64,000 nt of DNA from Bacillota bacterium (GTDB lineage: Bacteria > Bacillota_I > Bacilli_A > Izemoplasmatales > Hujiaoplasmataceae). Shown here one piece after another: positions 56,025 through 64,000 of the stretch (position 1 is the stretch's first letter; each line of letters begins with the position of its first letter). Under the pieces are notes generated by a model. The model was not told where the DNA came from, did not search any database, and saw only the letters and a program-made list of their open reading frames with translations. The stretch lies in contig JAHIVB010000013.1 in NCBI GenBank assembly GCA_018816905.1, positions 108,880-172,879 on the forward strand, in the 5' to 3' direction. A program made the position numbers and the translations under genes.

Positions 56025-56579
56025 AACAAAATCCTCCAATTAAGTAGTATTAAATAATATCAAATCGATTTTTATAAAACGAAATCACTCAATCATTAAA
56101 AATATTGAAAAAACCGAACTTACTGCTCTGTTACGAAATAGCAGGAAACAACCCCCCTTTATGCAAAACAAAGAGGATACTTACATTATCATAATTAAAT
56201 ATATTATATCAAATGTTTATCTTGTTGTATAGGAGCTATTAAGTATTTATTTGATACTGTTTATTATTCTATATTCGACAAAACTTAAGCAACCTAAATT
56301 CCAAGACATTGTATTTGTATTAAAGTAATTAACGTATACTTCAATAGCTGCCCAAGGGTCTTTGAAGTCATGAATTCTTAAATTCTCATTTTTATAATCT
56401 GCTTTTATCCCCCGTAAGTCTCTGATGCATGACTACTTGATTTTCCTTTATTACCTGCTCTTCACAAATCTTCATTTTCTGATTTAGGGTTAATCTCACA
56501 ATTAAAAATAGCTCCCTTTATCAGAGAGGTATTTTGTGTATACCATTTCTCCAACTTATGAGAGCAATTTCATTGTGAT

Positions 56580-56740
56580 ATGTCTTGTCATTACCAAGTT
56601 TATCTTGTTTTGCATCATAAAAATAGCTTGTTTTACTCTGGCGTTGTACCAAGTTTTCTTTCTGTGCAATAGAAGCTTTCAACTTGAAGCACAATCGCAC
56701 AAAATGCAAAAATTCTTCATGACAAGTTATTATCAATATA
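56580..56740. repeat. dispersed repeat, D-type copy 1
   Basis: TGTCTTGTCATTACCAAGTTTATC...AAAAATAG...ACCAAGTTT.CTTTCTGTGCA.TAGAAGCTT...AAGCACAATCGCA. About 75% identical to the copies at 57706 and 63668. Confidence 0.7.
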
Positions 56741-56827: not shown

Positions 56828-57613
56828 TTAATCCATTTTTTGACATAAAAACATCAATATATCATTTTTCGTGAAATCCTTATTACCTACCGTATCTGAA
56901 TAATAATCCACTATTCTAAATCCCTGTTTATTCATATAAGTTTGCATTTCTTTATAATTATAATGTTGATCCCAGTTATAAAGTTCTATCGTTCTTATAC
57001 CTACTGCTTTATCATATGAAAGAGAAATTTTTCTATCAGTAAATTTAATCAATCGTGATTCAACAACTGCATTTCCGGGCAAAAAAAAGCCGTCTTTATC
57101 TTCATATCTAACTGATGACTCTTCTAATGAATCAAAACGTTTATCGGAAAAGACATCAAAGATGAAAAAACCATTTGGATTTAACACTTTTTTAAGATTA
57201 TTTAGAAACTGTTTTCTATCGTTAGGTGATAATGCTCCAAAATCACAATAAATCATCATGGCATTATCTATTTTCTGCGGAAGAGTTTCAGATACATAGT
57301 TCATATTTAAATAAATTACATTAGAATTTTGTTTTCTAGCATATTCTAACGAATTCTCAGATATATCCACACCGATAACTTGATATCCCATTTGCTGTAA
57401 ATAATTTCCATACAAGCCAGGTCCGCACCCAAAATCGCAGATTGTAGACCCTCTCGTAAATGTATTTAGGAGAAATTTGCAACTCTCTTTTATTGTATCT
57501 AATTTCCTTGATGCAATATCACTTTCGAAATTAAGATGATATTTTAACATCTGCTTGGAAATATATGGATCAGTCCACATATCAATTGTTGTAATTTTTC
57601 CATAGGGTTTCAT
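56828..57613 (-). CDS. class I SAM-dependent methyltransferase (small-molecule/protein type, not DNA MTase)
   Basis: Motif I DFGCGPGLYG. No DPPY/NPPY or C5-methyltransferase motifs. RBS AAGGAG 8 nt upstream. Confidence 0.75.
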   Translation of the reverse strand: MKPYGKITTIDMWTDPYISKQMLKYHLNFESDIASRKLDTIKESCKFLLNTFTRGSTICDFGCGPGLYGNYLQQMGYQVIGVDISENSLEYARKQNSNVIYLNMNYVSETLPQKIDNAMMIYCDFGALSPNDRKQFLNNLKKVLNPNGFFIFDVFSDKRFDSLEESSVRYEDKDGFFLPGNAVVESRLIKFTDRKISLSYDKAVGIRTIELYNWDQHYNYKEMQTYMNKQGFRIVDYYSDTVGNKDFTKNDILMFLCQKMD

Positions 57614-57705
57614 TAAGATATCTCCTTATGCATCATGCGGTGAATTTTTATTGTTTTTGTGCCCAATTCTCATCAATAGTAATTTGAAACTCAGATGCAA
57701 GAAGT

Positions 57706-57840
57706 GTCCTGCTATTACAAAGTTTATCATATTTTTCACTAAATAAATAGTGTATTTTCTCTGGAGTTATTTCAAGTTTACTTTCTGTGTACTAGAAGAT
57801 TACATCTATTAGAATAATCGTTTCAAAATGTGATTTACCT
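57706..57840. repeat. dispersed repeat, D-type copy 2
   Basis: TGTCCTGCTATTACAAAGTTTATC...AAATAAATAG...TTTCAAGTTTACTTTCTGTGTACTAGAAG. Confidence 0.65.
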
Positions 57841-57892
57841 CTTAACAGAAATTATTGTGTTTCATCCCCTATTTTGATGCAATTACGTACCC

Positions 57893-57995
57893 CTGATATG
57901 ATTTCACAAACCACTGCTAAAAGTTGCGAACCTCTGCTATTTCTTTGCATATGATATCACAACCCACTGTTCAAAAACCATACCAAGCCAATATA
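57893..57995. repeat. A-type repeat: degenerate half-copy plus solo IS3 left-end fragment
   Basis: GCATATGATATCACAACCCACTGTTCAAAAACCATACCAAGCCAAT matches the IS3 left terminus (63271-63315) at about 90%. It is preceded by a degenerate partial duplicate, TGATATGATTTCACAAACCACTGCTAAAAG. Confidence 0.7.
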
Positions 57996-58042: not shown

Positions 58043-58348
58043 TTAACTTAATCGTCTAATTCTCTTAATATTAAAGATGATTCCAAATATTGTGGCAGCA
58101 ATTGTTAAGATAAGTAAGAGTATATAGGCAGCAATGTTGTTTGGATTATCAGTGTTCATTATATTGATTATTTGTTTAACGCACAAAATTAAACCAATTG
58201 GAATCCAAACAAATAGTATAACGTATGATATCCTTATTTCTAAAAGACCTCTATCTGTTACCTTTCTTGATTTTTCTTTGAATAGTGATTCCAAATCCAA
58301 CTTTACTTCAGTTTCAAATTCACTTATTTCTTTTTTATCTTCTATCAT
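58043..58348 (-). CDS. small two-TM membrane protein of unknown function
   Basis: 101 aa; RBS GGAGG 7 nt upstream; charged N-terminus followed by two hydrophobic helices. Confidence 0.5.
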   Translation of the reverse strand: MIEDKKEISEFETEVKLDLESLFKEKSRKVTDRGLLEIRISYVILFVWIPIGLILCVKQIINIMNTDNPNNIAAYILLLILTIAATIFGIIFNIKRIRRLS

Positions 58349-58714: not shown

Positions 58715-59221
58715 CTAAACGACTAATTTGATGAATATTGGAAGTTTTTCATCTGGATCGATTAAGTGACTATCAATGAATCCTACAGATTCCCAAAAAG
58801 GAAGTCCAGTGACTTCGTCTGGAGTCAAATAAATATGGTTTGCACCATCAGCTTTTAAGACATTTTCGATATGTTGGAAAAACATCCTCCCATATCCTAG
58901 TCTTCGTCTATCTTTCGCAATATATAATCCCATGATATAACCATATCCTTTGTCGATAAGTCCCTTGATTCCTCCTAAATCGATTGCAAAGTTACATATT
59001 CCAATACATTCGTCATTAACATACATAAGTTCAAAATGCATCGTATCGCGTAATCTTTGTATTCCAATTCTTTTCATCAAGTTATCAGTAACTTGGGTGA
59101 CATCGTAGTGTTCGTCTCTGTGCTCCTTCATTTCGGCTGTAAATGGCAACCAAAGAGATTTAGCATCTTGGATATGCTTTTCGTTTTCCTTTTGAATTTG
59201 AATATAGTATATTGTATTCAT
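58715..59221 (-). CDS. GNAT-family N-acetyltransferase
   Basis: 168 aa; acetyl-CoA motif region IAKDRRRLGYGRMFFQ. Confidence 0.7.
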   Translation of the reverse strand: MNTIYYIQIQKENEKHIQDAKSLWLPFTAEMKEHRDEHYDVTQVTDNLMKRIGIQRLRDTMHFELMYVNDECIGICNFAIDLGGIKGLIDKGYGYIMGLYIAKDRRRLGYGRMFFQHIENVLKADGANHIYLTPDEVTGLPFWESVGFIDSHLIDPDEKLPIFIKLVV

Positions 59222-59462
59222 TTTCCCTTCTTTCGTTTCCTCAATAAAATGTGTTATGGCAATATTATAGCATTTTTATGAAAAAAACTATGACTCAATG
59301 GTATTTATTTTTAGTAATCGTGTTTTTATTTAGACTTAATGGTTACAATTGACAAATATGACCAACTTACTCTTTTAGTTTACGTAACTATGATGGTGAA
59401 AAGACTTTATTAAGGCGCAAAAAAAAGGACTGATAAATAGTATCAATCCTGGTCTTGTTATA

Positions 59463-59606
59463 TGTCTTGTCATTCGCAAGTTTATCATGAAAATAGGGCA
59501 ATCCACTCAAGTTGCTCTATATGACATTATCAAGTTGCTTTTTTTGAAGAAACTCGTATGCATATGATATCACAACCCACTGTTCAAAAACCATACCAAT
59601 CCAATT
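59463..59606. repeat. composite repeat: short D-type copy 3 + solo IS3 left-end fragment (A-type)
   Basis: TGTCTTGTCATTCGCAAGTTTATC...is followed, after about 70 nt, by GCATATGATATCACAACCCACTGTTCAAAAACCATACCAATCCAAT. The distal part overlaps the 3' end of the HTH ORF. Confidence 0.65.
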
Positions 59607-59914: not shown

Positions 59915-59994
59915 GTTTTCACCTCCAAAACGCAAAAAAAGGCGTGATTTCTCACACCTTTGAATGTAGTTATACTTATATTTTGCCGTCTTTT

Positions 59995-60023
59995 ATTATA
60001 TCAAAGATATAATAAATTGTCAA
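59995..60023 (-). promoter_or_regulatory. perfect consensus sigma-A promoter (TTGACA-17-TATAAT)
   Basis: Minus-strand TTGACA (60023-60018), a 17-nt spacer, then TATAAT (60000-59995). Lies about 80 nt upstream of the HTH gene and just downstream of the candidate immunity gene. Confidence 0.6.
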
Positions 60024-60073
60024 TATTTCTATTAAATATTCATTGGTAGGCCAAATACTCGTATTTGGTACAT

Positions 60074-61075
60074 TTACTTTAATTTATTTACTTTTTTCAT
60101 TACGTCGATTAAATCCATTGAAGTAACTCGTCTTTGAAAATCTGATCCATAAATTTTGTTCATTCGAAGATTGTAGTTTTTATATAGCATGATTAATTGA
60201 TTATATAAACGCATCCACAGATAAAAAGTTGTCTCTTTTCCATCATTATGAATATATTCATTTGCAGGTAAAACTGGTTGAGGGAAGTTGCTCAAATAAT
60301 GCAGCTTTGTTGGGTAATTTTTTTTGATTTTCCATATTGCAATCCTATAGATTGGAAGATATCCAAATTCATCTGTAGGATAGTACTTCGTTTCTTTCTC
60401 TTTCAATTGTTCAACAATACTTTTTCTTCCATCAAACGGAAATAATCTTTCGTCATAAAAATTACTGAATACTTGAATATACTCAAGTTTATTATATTCC
60501 TCAATCGTCGTAGGTATGCTGGAAGAATCACATATTTTTGAATATACAACCGGTAATATATCATTAAGAAATGGAAACTCATCCACTTTTTGAAAAAGAA
60601 TCCACTTTCCATAATATTGCTCATCATCTACAAGTTCTTGATCCAATTCAATACAATATACATCCCACTTGTTCCAAGAGTTATTCGTTAACACGAATGG
60701 TTTAAGTTTTGAAGGATTGGAATTCGATTCAGATAAAATATACTTAATCTCATTCTTTATTTCATCAACACAGTCAGATAAGTCTAGAGATTCAGTAACT
60801 ATACACTTATGCATATCAAAGTGAAGAACTTGATCTTTTAGAACAGAAAGAAAGGACTCAAATTGAATGTTATATTTCCATAGAGTATAAGAGATACCTA
60901 TCCAAGATAGATACCATAGACACTCATTTGATTTTGCATTCATATCAATCTTTGTAGAAACCAAATTGAATAATTCCTTTTGATTCATACCCCTGTTGTA
61001 ATCGTGCAAACACACTTCACAAATATCAGTTATTACAGGAATTTTGGTAATCATTTGAAGATTTTTCAGTTTCAT
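60074..61075 (-). CDS. hypothetical protein, candidate immunity protein for the adjacent GIY-YIG RHS toxin module
   Basis: 333 aa with no recognisable family. Starts 34 nt after the toxin-module stop (RBS GGAG). Very AT-rich. Position immediately downstream of the toxin C-terminal domain fits the usual toxin/immunity arrangement. Confidence 0.5.
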   Translation of the reverse strand: MKLKNLQMITKIPVITDICEVCLHDYNRGMNQKELFNLVSTKIDMNAKSNECLWYLSWIGISYTLWKYNIQFESFLSVLKDQVLHFDMHKCIVTESLDLSDCVDEIKNEIKYILSESNSNPSKLKPFVLTNNSWNKWDVYCIELDQELVDDEQYYGKWILFQKVDEFPFLNDILPVVYSKICDSSSIPTTIEEYNKLEYIQVFSNFYDERLFPFDGRKSIVEQLKEKETKYYPTDEFGYLPIYRIAIWKIKKNYPTKLHYLSNFPQPVLPANEYIHNDGKETTFYLWMRLYNQLIMLYKNYNLRMNKIYGSDFQRRVTSMDLIDVMKKVNKLK

Positions 61076-61108
61076 ATTTTACATCTCCGATTTCTATCTT
61101 CTTGTTAA

Positions 61109-61954
61109 CTAATATGGAATTCCGGCCATATCTAGTAAGAGTAAACAATCGCTCTCCATCGCATTCATTAATAGTTCAGAATTATATCTTATATTTGATA
61201 TGCTTAAAATTCTATTCTCTAAAGGTGGCAGACCCAATATCAATATATATTCAGTCTCATATACTCTCGCTTCAGCTAGAGATATGTTTCCAATAATAAT
61301 ACTGTCGGCAGTTATCCTCTCACCATACCTTTTTCGATGGGCAGCCAATCTCCTAGGGTAGTTATTTGTGATTCCAACGTAGAAGACCCCGTCTTTATCA
61401 AATAATGCATAAACACAGTATCCACTCGAATGCGCTTGGGTGTATGCGGTTGCTGTAGCGATTGCTATTGCTATTACAGAAAATTTAAATTCTGTGCTTA
61501 CTTTATCGGCTAAATTAATCAGTTTGTCTACTAGATTATTAATTCCTCCTAAAAGTCCATTATATAATGAATCCGCACCGGGAATACCAATTTCCGTGGC
61601 AACGTATAGTATGAGTAATACAAATAAAGCAGCCAGAATTCCAATTGAAACAAGGGTAAATGTGGTTGGCTCGTAGCCGTTGTAATCAATGTAACTGGAT
61701 GGATTATTTAAGCAATACGCGTACATATTTGTTGAAGTAATATCCCCCGCTTTTCCGAGTAACCCATCAGAATTAATAAATCTACCAATTTCAGGATAAT
61801 AATATCTACTATTTAAGTAATAGAGTCCTGTTTCTTGATCAAATCTATATCCTCGATATCTATATGAGTTTTTCACTGCGAGACCGATTCCTGAATTGTC
61901 GGTTACCTCAGTAATATTCCCCCAGGCGTCATACTCGTATTCAACAACGATCAC
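61109..61954 (-). CDS. 5'-truncated/orphan RHS-repeat C-terminal module carrying a GIY-YIG nuclease toxin domain
   Basis: Begins directly inside RHS core-end sequence (YDAWGNIT...YRYRGYRFDQETGLYYLNSRYYYPEIGRFINSDGL). A hydrophobic segment follows, then GIY-YIG motifs GYCVYALFDKDGVFYVGITNNYPRRLAAHRKRYG. A GTG start and an in-frame stop 2 codons upstream show there is no upstream RHS body. Confidence 0.75.
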   Translation of the reverse strand: MIVVEYEYDAWGNITEVTDNSGIGLAVKNSYRYRGYRFDQETGLYYLNSRYYYPEIGRFINSDGLLGKAGDITSTNMYAYCLNNPSSYIDYNGYEPTTFTLVSIGILAALFVLLILYVATEIGIPGADSLYNGLLGGINNLVDKLINLADKVSTEFKFSVIAIAIATATAYTQAHSSGYCVYALFDKDGVFYVGITNNYPRRLAAHRKRYGERITADSIIIGNISLAEARVYETEYILILGLPPLENRILSISNIRYNSELLMNAMESDCLLLLDMAGIPY

Positions 61955-62018
61955 ACTGGATTAAGTGCTTTTTAAACAGTATTTAATAATAAACTCATAT
62001 ACATACAAATCATATCAT

Positions 62019-63020
62019 TTAAGAGGCTGATATGCAAGCCTGATTTTGAATTCTGTAACTAATTGGTGTCATGTAATTCAGAGTAGAATGCATTCTCTTT
62101 CTGTTGTAGAATATTTCAATATATTGAAATAAATCGTTTTCGACTTCAGAGGAATTTTCATAAGATCTTCGGTAGATGCATTCTTTTTGAAGACAAGCAA
62201 AAAAGCTCTCCATACAAGAGTTGTCGTAAGGGCATCCTCCGCGACTCATACTTTGAACCTTCCCATAGTCATCAAGGATATTCTTGAATCCTGCACTTGC
62301 GTACTGGCTACCTCTATCACTGTGAAAAACGGTTCCTTGAACTTCAGGATACCTGGCTATTGCATTAGAGATAGCTTGTTTCACTAATTCCGTGTCGATA
62401 TTCTTACTAGTTGAATAACCAATGACCTCACGGTTATAAAGATCCATAACAGCAGCTAAGTAATACCAACCTAGACCGGTTTTAATATAAGTAATATCAC
62501 TTACCCATATTTTGTTTGGTTCTTCTACACTAAACTTTCTATCAACGATATTGTCTGCATATCTTGATAGAATCTTTTTATATGAATAGGGTCTGAATTT
62601 CTTTTGGGTGATAGAATATAATCCGTTTTCCCGCATGATTCTGCGGACTTTCCATTCACTTAATCGTGTTCCTTCTGTTTCTAATTGTCTTTGTATTTTC
62701 CGGACTCCGTAGATTTCTTTACTGTCTGAAAACACTTTATTCACGGATTGAACCAGCGATCGTTCTGATTCCTTCCTTATATTTCTTCTCTTTTCTTGTT
62801 TTTTCCATTGGTAAAATGCTCGCTCTGGGATTTCAAGGACTCTGCACATCTTCCTCACGCTGTGTTGCGAGCATAGCCTATACATGGCTTCACATTTCAT
62901 GCGCGCTGTTCCATGAAGATGTGCAGGGATTATTTTAGGATCTCTACCTTTTCTCTTTCTTCTTCCAATAATCTGTTTTTTTGTTTTAGTTCTTTTTCTA
63001 ATTCCTTCACTTTGATCCAA
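62019..63020 (-). CDS. IS3-family transposase OrfB (DDE integrase core), expressed as OrfAB fusion by -1 frameshift
   Basis: DDE/rve-type motifs (..SDITY.., ..HSDRGSQY..). It overlaps orfA by 91 nt in the -1 frame. Confidence 0.85.
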   Translation of the reverse strand: MDQSEGIRKRTKTKKQIIGRRKRKGRDPKIIPAHLHGTARMKCEAMYRLCSQHSVRKMCRVLEIPERAFYQWKKQEKRRNIRKESERSLVQSVNKVFSDSKEIYGVRKIQRQLETEGTRLSEWKVRRIMRENGLYSITQKKFRPYSYKKILSRYADNIVDRKFSVEEPNKIWVSDITYIKTGLGWYYLAAVMDLYNREVIGYSTSKNIDTELVKQAISNAIARYPEVQGTVFHSDRGSQYASAGFKNILDDYGKVQSMSRGGCPYDNSCMESFFACLQKECIYRRSYENSSEVENDLFQYIEIFYNRKRMHSTLNYMTPISYRIQNQACISAS

Positions 63021-63241
63021 TTTTCATCTTTACTCACTCTTGGACCTTTTACAATTCCCTTTTCGTCTGAGTAAGTTGGCATTTTATTCTTTCTTCTAAA
63101 ATCTCTTACCCACCGACATACTGTGTTAATGTCAATTCCTAATTCTTCTGCGACTGAAGTAGCTGATCTTCCTGAATCGATGATGAACTTTGAGGTTCTT
63201 TCTCTCATTTCATCTGAGTATTTACTATTATTGCTTGGCAT
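62930..63241 (-). CDS. IS3-family transposase OrfA (HTH)
   Basis: MPSNNSKYSDEMRERTSKFII...ATSVAEELGIDINTVCRWV HTH, with a leucine-zipper-like C-terminus. Start probably ATG at 63241 or 63259, not 63271. Confidence 0.8.
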   Translation of the reverse strand: MPSNNSKYSDEMRERTSKFIIDSGRSATSVAEELGIDINTVCRWVRDFRRKNKMPTYSDEKGIVKGPRVSKDENWIKVKELEKELKQKNRLLEEEREKVEILK

Positions 63242-63548
63242 GGGGTTTATACCTTTCATTTTTCTATGCATATGATATCACAACCCACTGTTCTAAAACC
63301 ATACCAGTCCAAATTGAATTTAACAACATGTCTTCCCTTGCGCATTTGCATTATTTACGATTACATTCTTTGCTTCAACTTGGATTTAAGAAGGATTCAG
63401 AAATTGAAGCTGCCAAATGTATTGCTAGTGCAATAGCAAAAGGGAACACAGAAGAAAAAAAGTTTTTTTAAAAGAGCTTGAATTCGATCATAAGATTAAT
63501 CCAATTGATTTATTGAAGCGTCATCAAGACTCGATATAGAAAGTAAAA

Positions 63549-63582
63549 ATGCAGGCAACATTAAGTTGTCTGCATTTTTTTG
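63549..63582 (+). terminator. intrinsic terminator ATGCAGGCAAC-attaa-GTTGTCTGCAT + T7
   Basis: 10-bp stem with one mismatch, followed by TTTTTTT on the plus strand. Confidence 0.6.
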
Positions 63583-63667
63583 GGTTTTCACATAGAAAGA
63601 ATTGCCTTTTTCGGTAACGAATATTTAAACTGACTGTCTTCATCGTCAGTGCAGTTTTCATTTATAG

Positions 63668-63830
63668 TGTCTTGTCATTACTAAGTTTATCGCGTTTTTT
63701 AACAGAAAAATAGCGTGTTTCACTCTCTTACCATACCAAGTTTACTGTTTTTGCACTAGAAGCTTATAGCTTTAAGCACAATCGTCATAAAAAGTGTTTT
63801 ATCTCTTGACATATATTTGATATGATTTCA
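63668..63830. repeat. dispersed repeat, D-type copy 4 plus partial A-type half
   Basis: TGTCTTGTCATTACTAAGTTTATC...AAAAATAG...CCATACCAAGTTTACTGTTTTTGCACTAGAAGCTT...AAGCACAATCGTCA...TGATATGATTTCAATCAATTCAT. Confidence 0.65.
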
Positions 63831-64000
63831 ATCAATTCATTTATTTTTTAATCTTACATATATACCATATGTCATTTCCTTCAAATCCACAATCAGTATA
63901 TAATTTTATTGGATTAGATATATTTTCCAATCTACCTGAAACTGTGATAAAATCAGCTATTTTTGACAGTCTATTTATTAATGCATTTACAATTAACTTC

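Follow-up and report, generated by a model that had tools for sequence, protein, structure and literature searches.

Gene content and organization of the locus

The locus lies on the minus strand of the window (the whole stretch of 64,000 nucleotides that was analyzed) and is composed of an open reading frame (ORF) of 281 amino acids, the gene of a 333-amino-acid protein that follows it, and an insertion sequence of the IS3 family that adjoins its 5′ end. The features were located as follows:

61955..63312, minus strand: complete IS3-family insertion sequence, from transposase profiles and terminal inverted-repeat alignment; orfA (63271–62930) and orfB (63020–62019) overlap, with an A-run
~63265–63312 and ~61955–62005: left (IRL) and right (IRR) inverted repeats of this element, imperfect, from alignment
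61109..61954, minus strand: ORF of 281 amino acids with a GTG start and its stop at 61111–61109, read as a 3′ rhs remnant (RHS core end, hydrophobic linker, GIY-YIG toxin domain)
61676..61933, minus strand: RHS repeat-associated core domain (residues 8–93; TIGR03696), containing ...YRYRGYRFDQETGLYYLNSRYYYPEIGRFINSDGL and then NMYAYCLNNPSSYIDYNG
61439..61669, minus strand: hydrophobic Gly/Ala-rich linker (residues 96–172), from hydropathy
61112..61438, minus strand: GIY-YIG (URI) nuclease domain (residues 173–281; PF01541)
61085..61088, minus strand: GGAG resembling a Shine-Dalgarno sequence, located 9 nt before the start codon (ATG) of the 333-amino-acid gene, from reading of the sequence
60074..61075, minus strand: candidate immunity gene of 333 amino acids with an ATG start, 33 nt after the toxin stop; predicted N-terminal all-alpha domain (~1–115) and C-terminal alpha/beta domain (~130–333)
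59543..59605, minus strand: solo copy of the IS3 left end, 96–98% identical to 63265–63312

As an earlier reading made from the sequence alone had stated, the 281-amino-acid ORF begins two codons after a stop, the in-frame TAA being located at 61963–61961 and the GTG at 61954. A protein identical to it (P0001) is annotated at NCBI as 'GIY-YIG nuclease family protein [Firmicutes bacterium]'. The RHS core ending that this reading had recognized was recovered by TIGR03696 (Rhs_assc_core) over residues 8–93 with 75.3 bits (cutoff 32.5; E=3.9e-21), covering profile positions 1–75 of 76. The match to the RHS_core model NF041261 reached 36.9 bits (cutoff 2000) and was confined to the last ~80 profile positions, and a single partial YD repeat was found (PF05593, 21.3 bits, below the threshold of 22; TIGR01643, 18.9 bits, above 15.8). 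The ORF contains neither the long YD-repeat shell nor the N-terminal secretion/delivery region of a full-length RHS/YD-repeat protein. Its core end aligns with RHS proteins from Izemoplasmatales, Acholeplasmataceae, and Bacilli metagenome-assembled genomes (MAGs), and a scan of GTDB genomes with the toxin as query returned 49 RHS-core relatives. The canonical motif of RHS C-terminal autoproteolysis is of the DPxGL type. In the alignment, the corresponding motif reads INSDGL in our ORF and NADGL, NADGI, or NPDAI in its relatives, and the proline of the canonical motif is missing from the clade of the 281-amino-acid ORF.

The hydrophobic segment noted earlier is also present, with a Kyte–Doolittle mean over 19 residues that peaks at 2.87 (window centers at residues 104–119). 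Hydropathy places one strong transmembrane-like helix at ~97–120 and a second, weaker one at ~158–170, and a linker of this kind, about 80 residues long, is common to all related GIY-YIG RHS C-termini. The nuclease domain that follows was likewise borne out by PF01541 (26.0 bits, gathering score 22.6; E=1.2e-5; residues 179–216), in a match that spans profile positions 2–40 of 78, i.e., the first half of the Pfam profile. The motifs VYAL, FYVGIT, R(RLAAH), AR-x-x-E, and E-N-R were found in the domain, the motifs carrying catalytic residues are in place (V-Y-AL, F-Y-VG, P-R-R, AR-VY-E, LE-N-R), and the alignment of seven partner toxins keeps Y, G, T, R, R-x-x-E, and N without exception. When a profile of seven related toxin C-termini was compared with the PDB, the matches corresponded to GIY-YIG proteins only (UvrC, EndoII, SLX1, I-TevI, and UPF0213), each of them non-significant (E from 0.02 to 1). 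The Pfam scan of the ORF at E≤10 returned PF01541 and PF05593 only, with no match to Tox-URI2 (PF15653). At the level of sequence profiles, the identities of both domains, the RHS core end and the GIY-YIG nuclease, are thus established, and the latter is predicted to act as a DNase.

Among known systems, the closest counterpart is Tox-URI1, a toxin domain of GIY-YIG/URI fold found at the C-terminus of polymorphic toxins (Zhang, de Souza, Anantharaman, Iyer & Aravind 2012, PMC3482391). Our domain shares with it the residue pattern Y, YxG, R, [RK]xxE, N, the attachment to RHS, the occurrence in Firmicutes, and the immunity gene next to it, an assignment read from alignments and compared with Table 2 of that paper. 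Unlike Tox-URI1, the nuclease is preceded here by a conserved hydrophobic linker of ~80 residues, and the 333-amino-acid partner belongs to none of the immunity families listed there. Candidate type VI secretion system (T6SS) effectors in which an RHS protein likewise ends in a GIY-YIG nuclease domain, considered DNases by bioinformatic prediction, are described in the accessible parts of two reports, as PAAR-RhsA-GIY-YIG in Salmonella (PMC11669294) and as Rhs-Ct GIY-YIG in Stenotrophomonas (bioRxiv 10.64898/2026.07.13.738213). As presented in those parts, which report no biochemical characterization, these effectors differ from our ORF in being full-length, T6SS-linked, Gram-negative, and accompanied by other predicted immunity proteins.

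Truncation of the RHS gene at the IS3 element

The insertion sequence was identified by the match of its orfB to NF033516 (316 bits, cutoff 160) and by Pfam matches to rve, HTH_21, and HTH_Tnp_1. Its right inverted repeat ends at 61955, flush against the GTG at 61954, and the placement of the element's end is uncertain by a few bases. The sequence-only reading had put the IS3 end 11 nt away; the adjoining element is indeed there, while the gap measures 0–11 nt according to the position chosen for the end of the element. No target-site duplication of the 3–4 bp expected for the IS3 type could be recognized at the flanks (...CAATT versus GTGATCG...). The solo left-end copy is situated 470 nt downstream of the 333-amino-acid gene, where it truncates a 121-amino-acid HTH-like ORF. 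A metagenome scan for other copies of the element recovered only short solo left-end remnants and no 5′ half of an rhs gene.

The claim that no RHS body exists upstream held when tblastn was run with four RHS proteins over the window and a 1.86-kb extension beyond its end, in which only the segment 61960–61187 was matched. According to tblastn and the repeat alignment, RHS homology begins at 61960–61948, up against the right inverted repeat ending at 61955. The two largest ORFs of the window, considered as candidates for the RHS body, were rejected, as their products are unrelated proteins of the Ig-like/CBM surface and GDPD types. Rfam gave no match in the window. The junction between the insertion sequence and the toxin ORF, together with its flanks, is 100% identical in three independent assemblies, including the ENA contig k141_1164480 and Logan contigs from SRR35108208 and SRR10604397, one of which reaches 1.86 kb further; it is therefore not an assembly artifact. 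In none of the three is a full-length rhs gene contiguous with this locus, an arrangement that would have spoken against the earlier reading. The rhs sequence is thus truncated at the IS end, with no RHS body nearby and a reproducible junction. Because no target-site duplication was seen and the end of the element can be placed only to within a few bases, the history of the locus is something that we infer, and it may have consisted of an insertion and a deletion or of a recombination between IS copies.

The earlier description of the ORF as a displaced or orphan tip stands in part. It is an orphan fragment, but since the RHS homology reaches precisely to the right end of IS3 and no further, and no target-site duplication was found, the description of a 3′ remnant left after a rearrangement involving the insertion sequence suits the cassette better than that of a classical orphan displaced to a place behind a main rhs gene.

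The 333-amino-acid partner and its pairing with GIY-YIG toxins

The gene following the toxin ORF is AT-rich, as had been noted, with a GC content of 29.5%, whereas the toxin gene has 36.6% and the window as a whole 37.6%. Its product is large for an immunity protein, and with a pI of 6.0 it is not acidic, so DNA mimicry is not suggested. The sequence-only reading had assigned it to no recognizable family. This is correct for the curated libraries, as Pfam (E≤10), NCBIfam, and PADLOC gave no match, but at least 209 relatives (50% clustering) were recovered by an exhaustive HMMER search, 85 of them at E≤1e-10. The family was visible solely to this exhaustive search, whereas a word-indexed homologue search found two relatives by sequence and five by profile. 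PADLOC returned no match for the toxin either, and an anti-phage defense reading was dropped on account of these empty results for both proteins.

Over the N-terminal ~100 residues, most family members share a consensus of the form MGxWG...D..A.DV...FW.ALADTQW. This start resembles DUF4259 (PF14078), which matched 5 of 41 relatives (best E=3.4e-5); the 333-amino-acid protein itself gave no match and has lost the MGxWG motif. In contrast to DUF4259, the conserved toxin-linked part of the family is the C-terminal domain, which lies outside that model. For the 333-amino-acid protein, AlphaFold2 with a 96-sequence alignment produced a confident two-domain model (pLDDT 93), while a single-sequence run gave a pLDDT of 34. 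No convincing match to the model was found in the PDB or BFVD, and the sole PDB match of the family sequence profile was 35 residues of a designed helical protein. The immunity families reported with Tox-URI toxins (Imm9, Imm12, Imm14, Imm26, Imm39, Imm44, Imm51, and Imm54) occupy the same genomic position and have the same presumed role; our protein differs from them in its larger size, its two domains, and the absence of a match in a Pfam HMM scan. The Pfam Imm models matched neither the 333-amino-acid protein (E≤10) nor any of 41 relatives (E≤0.01).

The proposal that this gene encodes the immunity protein gained support from conserved synteny. A family member directly follows a GIY-YIG toxin C-terminus in all seven distinct loci with readable upstream sequence, a small sample composed of the window, L005, L049, L055, L056-59, L060, and L063-65. 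The upstream toxins of L005, L055, L056, L057, L059, and L060 match PF01541 with E values from 5e-7 to 6e-4, those of L005, L059, and L060 above the gathering score. At L056, the toxin is a 678-amino-acid RHS-GIY-YIG protein and the partner a 193-amino-acid homologue that consists of the C-terminal domain only, while L005 and L065 are orphan arrays with further toxin fragments downstream. Pairwise divergence of the toxin C-terminus and of the partner was correlated (Mantel r=0.56, a value reached by 93 of 5040 permutations; n=7 loci), although this could partly reflect shared host phylogeny. In one related GIY-YIG RHS toxin (P0052), the next gene encodes a 156-amino-acid protein unrelated to the family, the pattern expected if immunity genes can be swapped. 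The partner gene is therefore located where a cognate immunity gene is expected, directly 3′ of the toxin C-terminus, and the pairing is kept across divergent loci. As family members consistently follow GIY-YIG toxin C-termini, the immunity assignment is more than a positional guess, and gene order and co-divergence together point to 333 amino acids of putative immunity protein.

Proposed origin and function of the cassette

We consider it probable that the locus represents the 3′ terminal part of a polymorphic-toxin gene of the rhs (YD-repeat) type, cut from its body by the IS3-family element, together with the cognate immunity gene. In the ancestral full-length protein, the C-terminal region would have been enclosed by the RHS shell, and autoproteolysis at the core-end motif (...GRFINSDGL|L...) may have freed a fragment composed of the hydrophobic, glycine-zipper-like linker and the ~100-residue GIY-YIG nuclease of putative Tox-URI1 type. 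The linker could aid this fragment in inserting into or crossing the membrane of a target cell, where the nuclease would then cut DNA. Inside the producer cell, the nuclease would be neutralized by the 333-amino-acid protein, probably through binding by its C-terminal alpha/beta domain, the sole part retained by the 193-amino-acid homologue after the 678-amino-acid RHS-GIY-YIG gene. Today, the toxin fragment may persist as a pseudogene or serve as a reservoir for recombination, while the immunity gene, with its Shine-Dalgarno sequence retained, could still guard against the same toxin from neighboring cells.

The expression signals bear on what the remnant can still do. No Shine-Dalgarno sequence precedes the toxin GTG or any internal start that would spare the whole nuclease domain; the sole internal start with a Shine-Dalgarno-like site, TTG203, would delete the first GIY-YIG motifs. 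For the 333-amino-acid gene no promoter could be assigned, since a scan gave about as many matches as chance alone would (21 against 21.5 expected). Given that the fragment is without a delivery part, an RHS shell, and a ribosome-binding site, it is probably silent. The two genes might nevertheless form an intracellular toxin-antitoxin-like module, in which translation starting at the GTG, or read-through from IS3, yields a truncated toxin that is active inside the producer, with the 333-amino-acid protein as antitoxin. Orphan Rhs in Salmonella is reported to behave in a toxin-antitoxin-like manner within the cell (PMC7043789), the ORF studied here is uninterrupted and keeps every catalytic residue, and transcripts from IS3 could read through, as no terminator was detected on the minus strand between the orfB stop and the toxin GTG. 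Against these points, Met77 is no better placed than the GTG with respect to a Shine-Dalgarno sequence, stops intervene between orfB and the toxin, whose reading frames differ, and the membrane-type linker on the fragment is suited to delivery, which leaves us with a low opinion of this explanation.

A somewhat stronger rival, yet still an unlikely one, is a classical displaced orphan, i.e., a cassette already 5′-truncated behind a main rhs gene, whose 5′ edge was later reached by IS3 or whose main gene was later removed by it, and which could be re-fused by recombination elsewhere in the genome. Orphan rhs-CT/rhsI modules of Enterobacteria reportedly keep a conserved stretch of the core, as Poole et al. 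in 2011 and Koskiniemi et al. in 2014 are said to have found, and our locus resembles them as a promoter-less 3′ fragment with a core stretch (~95 conserved residues), a toxin domain, and an immunity gene. Relatives of both genes were also found in true orphan arrays (L005 and L065), and short proteins (~200–500 amino acids) make up most of the RHS-core relatives in these lineages; many of these short proteins are located on short contigs, however, so their length is no evidence of orphan status. In contrast to such modules, there is no main rhs gene upstream within 64 kb plus 1.86 kb, the 5′ limit is set by IS3, with RHS homology extending to the IS end and not to a preceding immunity gene, and the host is a low-GC Bacillota/Mycoplasmatota-like MAG instead of a T6SS-bearing proteobacterium. 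That the 333-amino-acid protein is not an immunity protein at all, but an accessory factor of GIY-YIG toxins (a chaperone, adaptor, or activator) or an unrelated hitch-hiker, would fit its unusual size, two domains, and non-acidic character, its lack of similarity to any described Imm family, and the resemblance of its N-terminal domain to DUF4259, a family without known function. We judge this improbable, since the partner is always directly downstream of the toxin C-terminus on the same strand, also in orphan cassettes, where normally only toxin–immunity pairs persist, and since it co-diverges with the toxin and is replaced by an unrelated gene after P0052, as swappable immunity genes would be. 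An assembly chimera at the IS3–toxin junction could be suspected 2 kb from a contig end in a region rich in insertion sequences and repeats, but the identity of junction and flanks in three independently assembled data sets makes it extremely improbable.

Returning to the IS3-truncated toxin gene with its immunity gene, the system is of an ordinary kind, a remnant of an RHS/Tox-URI1-type polymorphic toxin, whose immunity family is apparently undescribed. More tentatively, and with slightly less than even confidence, we propose that the family of at least 209 members is a new and fairly widespread immunity family, with a C-terminal fold that has no solved relative, acting as a specific inhibitor of GIY-YIG (URI) nucleases, and that the toxin linker is a self-translocation device for Gram-positive or wall-less targets. 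To our knowledge, there is no structural description of any GIY-YIG nuclease inhibitor, and our searches of the literature and the PDB found no such inhibitor.

Polymorphic toxins, RHS proteins included, count among the chief means by which bacteria compete, and the immunity proteins that accompany them offer specific inhibitors of enzymes. In this locus, the toxin portion is of a known type, and an orphan RHS-GIY-YIG tip beside an insertion sequence is unremarkable; the point worth keeping is the partner, an uncurated two-domain family consistently linked to GIY-YIG toxin domains. If the 333-amino-acid protein binds and blocks the nuclease, it would be a protein inhibitor of the GIY-YIG fold, and the family would provide a handle by which several hundred genes labeled 'hypothetical' could be annotated as encoding immunity proteins. 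The locus is also an example, from little-studied Bacilli/Mycoplasmatota-like MAGs of gut or digester environments, of toxin genes being dismantled by insertion sequences and of an immunity gene that outlasts this process.

The toxin fragment and its junction with an IS3 element

Both open reading frames named in the sequence-only reading were present as described in the ORF listing, and an IS3-family element is situated upstream of the 281-aa ORF on the same strand:

61109..61954, minus: 281-aa ORF (toxin fragment), GTG start
60074..61075, minus: 333-aa ORF (partner, candidate immunity protein), ATG start
63271-62930, minus: IS3 orfA
63020-62019, minus: IS3 orfB (Pfam rve, HTH_21, rve_2/3)

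The 281-aa ORF had been read as an RHS end joined to a GIY-YIG nuclease, and the corresponding profiles, TIGR03696 and Pfam GIY-YIG, both matched above cutoff. Residues 8-93 correspond to the RHS repeat-associated core TIGR03696 (75.3 bits, cutoff 32.5, E=3.9e-21), with a single partial YD repeat N-terminal to it in HMM scans, and the full-length RHS model NF041261 matched through its last ~80 positions only (36.9 bits vs. a cutoff of 2000). The core-end motifs (...GRFINSDGL and NMYAYCLNNPSSYIDYNG) are followed by a hydrophobic stretch of ~77 residues, and the linker comprises a strong TM-like helix at ~97-120 (Kyte-Doolittle mean up to 2.87) and a weaker second helix. Pfam GIY-YIG matched the last ~110 residues (26.0 bits vs. 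a gathering score of 22.6, E=1.2e-5). Residues conserved in the alignment with related toxin ends, namely the Tyr of 'GIY', the Tyr-x-Gly of 'YIG', an Arg, R-x-x-E, and an Asn, are those of the Tox-URI1 signature, which Zhang et al. 2012 (PMC3482391) gave for the URI-fold toxins found in RHS proteins and further polymorphic toxins. A PDB search with a profile of seven related toxin C-termini returned GIY-YIG proteins only, each weakly (E 0.02-1): UvrC 1yd6, T4 EndoII 2wsh, SLX1, I-TevI, UPF0213 proteins, and the GRXS16 GIY-YIG domain. We consider these domain assignments sound.

The orfB product matched NCBIfam NF033516 'IS3 family transposase' at 316 bits (cutoff 160), and alignment of both element ends revealed imperfect terminal inverted repeats (63308-63265 vs. 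61955-62005). Since this alignment ends at 61955, the right end of the element abuts the GTG at 61954, which lies two codons downstream of an in-frame TAA at 61963-61961. No target-site duplication was recognised at the element flanks.

An RHS body had been reported as missing upstream, and none was found by tblastn, among the window ORFs, or in an overlapping contig. With four RHS proteins as tblastn queries, RHS-like coding was confined to 61960-61187, so RHS homology begins at the IS3 end; of the two largest window ORFs, one encodes a surface protein of Ig-like/CBM type and the other a GDPD protein. ENA contig ERZ27247128:k141_1164480 (172,849 bp) terminates at window base 64000, and the window makes up its end portion. 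Logan contig L002 (SRR35108208_228), 100% identical to window 59986-64000, runs 1.86 kb further, and in this extension tblastn detected no rhs coding, the genes there being a methyltransferase and a GNAT. A third assembly, L003 (SRR10604397_211), is identical to the window over 59986-63697. The possibility raised earlier, that a full-length rhs gene contiguous with the 281-aa ORF in other assemblies would reveal an assembly or IS artefact, found no support, as such a gene was absent from every assembly covering the junction; being identical in separate assemblies, the IS-toxin junction is reproducible and not an assembly artefact. Because RHS homology ends at the IS, the sequence on its other flank is unrelated, and no target duplication can be seen around the element, we infer that an IS-associated rearrangement left behind the 3' end of an rhs gene here. 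This remnant could have arisen by IS3 insertion followed by an adjacent deletion, or by recombination between IS copies, and a main rhs gene may lie elsewhere in the source genome.

The toxin fragment is probably silent, because sequence inspection found no Shine-Dalgarno-like sequence before its GTG or Met77, IS3 orfB is in a different frame with stops between, and the fragment bears neither a secretion signal nor an RHS shell. The sole internal start with a Shine-Dalgarno-like sequence, TTG203, would drop the first GIY-YIG motifs. The toxin stop and the 333-aa gene start are 33 nt apart, with GGAG 9 nt before the ATG; promoter-like matches in the region occurred at the chance rate (21 vs. 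21.5 expected), and none was assigned to the 333-aa gene.

The partner family and its pairing with GIY-YIG toxins

The 333-aa protein had been described as having no recognisable family, which holds for Pfam (even at E<=10), NCBIfam, and PADLOC but not overall. A word-indexed search returned only the protein itself and one 48%-identical protein, and when 1.84 billion cluster representatives were searched exhaustively with HMMER, 209 relatives reached E<=1e-3 and 85 of them E<=1e-10, most being 290-340 aa long. The family consensus starts with MGxWG..LY.ND...DV...FW.ALADTQW, of which the 333-aa protein itself has lost the MGxWG motif. DUF4259, for which no functional literature was found, was weakly matched by 5 of 41 members (best E=3.4e-5). 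The C-terminal part is best conserved, with W134, D138, P175, K180, P188, G262, P270, E273, and Y298 each at >=90%. AlphaFold2, with a 96-sequence alignment, gave a confident model (pLDDT 93.0, pTM 0.85) with predicted all-alpha (~1-115) and alpha/beta (~130-333) domains; Foldseek detected no relative of this model in the PDB (best E=0.52, TM<=0.14) or BFVD (best E=0.014, TM 0.15).

The upstream gene was inspected for every family member with obtainable DNA:

L005, member P0122: 203-aa orphan GIY-YIG C-terminus; a further toxin fragment after the partner
L060, member P0123: 118-aa GIY-YIG ORF
L049 (Bacilli MAG), 295-aa member: 95-aa GIY-YIG fragment
L055, member P0271: RHS-core, Ala/Gly-rich linker, and GIY-YIG end
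L056-59, member P0272 (193 aa, with the C-terminal domain alone): RHS protein of 678 aa with a GIY-YIG end
L063-65, member P0164: RHS-core, linker, and GIY-YIG end

A GIY-YIG toxin end directly precedes the partner in all seven informative loci, the window included and two contigs too short to judge left out. The toxin C-termini form two subgroups ('...SISNIRY..EL...' and '...NGISP...EILYWTGN'), each pairing with one partner subgroup, and pairwise identity among toxin C-termini correlates with that among partner C-domains (Mantel r=0.56; 93/5040 permutations as high). This synteny and correlated divergence support the immunity candidate proposed earlier. As comparative evidence they are good: the 333-aa protein would be the cognate immunity protein, with the C-terminal domain as its putative toxin-specific part. 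The more distant RHS-GIY-YIG toxin P0052 has an unrelated 156-aa gene downstream instead, which fits the known pairing of Tox-URI toxins with several different immunity families (PMC3482391). With a pI of 6.0 the 333-aa protein is not acidic, and DNA mimicry is therefore not proposed; by default, it would act by directly occluding the nuclease.

After family members, new toxin fragments open the next cassettes in L005 (1763-2212) and L065 (1107-2027), which are thus genuine orphan toxin-immunity arrays; in one fragment, '...YCANTPVMYSDITG' leads into a hydrophobic region rich in Gly/Ala, and the other has RHS repeats.

Mobile-element remnants and flanking genes

Solo IS3 left ends, consisting of the inverted repeat and first orfA codons, were located at 57930-57992 and 59543-59605, and in three unrelated metagenome contigs (L066 2254-2313, L067 2416-2516, L068 4603-4677). 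They are 92-100% identical and share a common outer boundary, the left 50-100 nt being the part that repeatedly survives. L066 and L067, the two contigs with ORFs listed, lack a transposase gene beside the remnant, which in L067 adjoins a serine recombinase gene. An intergenic repeat of 150-170 nt (71-78% identical; 56568-56730, 57703-57853, 63656-63817, and a partial copy at 59455-59489) is restricted, within the window, to this 8-kb stretch. Its copies lie upstream, on the gene strand, of an LRR lipoprotein, a methyltransferase, a GNAT, and a 45-aa ORF with a hairpin behind it. The repeat had no match in Rfam and could be a duplicated promoter/leader or a MITE-like element. The L002 genes past window base 64000, upstream of IS3 (475-2020; methyltransferase, 263 aa, and GNAT acetyltransferase, 207 aa), mirror the pair downstream of the toxin module (56828-57613, 58715-59221), and a segmental duplication may flank the IS/toxin region.

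Just past the 333-aa gene (59938-60023, minus), a perfect extended -10 promoter (TTGACA-17-TATAAT after TG) is followed ~27 nt later by a terminator-like hairpin, then by GGAGG, after which begins an HTH-like ORF of 115-121 aa that extends into the solo IS end at 59605. At 59986, between this -10 box and the hairpin, both Logan contigs stop, suggesting that the boundary there varies between strains or is repeated. A predicted membrane protein of 101 aa (58043-58348, minus) showed only faint matches to the Mycoplasma 'MAG0920/MAG1210' families (E ~0.01-0.05); taken with the RHS-core relatives found in Izemoplasmatales and Acholeplasmataceae, these matches hint at a Mycoplasmatota-like Bacilli MAG as the source. 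In another genome (L004 6148-17227), the related RHS-GIY-YIG fragment P0052 (408 aa) is likewise situated among IS fragments (HTH_38, IS3, IS66, DDE_Tnp_1_6) and another RHS fragment. Erosion of rhs loci by IS elements seems to be a frequent event in these lineages.

Relation to known toxin-immunity modules

Orphan rhs-CT/rhsI modules of enterobacteria are located behind the main rhs gene; our locus resembles them but is not so placed. Judged from sequence, it is functionally an RHS/Tox-URI1-type polymorphic-toxin C-terminus with a putative immunity gene (PMC3482391). GIY-YIG-ending RHS proteins are also catalogued for Salmonella (PMC11669294) and Stenotrophomonas (bioRxiv 10.64898/2026.07.13.738213). 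The toxin side is ordinary, and the earlier interpretation is supported. By HMM search, the partner appears to fall outside every immunity family listed for URI toxins, and its predicted structure is confident, without a detectable solved relative. What is new is the membership of this 'no family' partner in an uncurated two-domain family of considerable size, whose members show tight linkage to GIY-YIG toxin domains.
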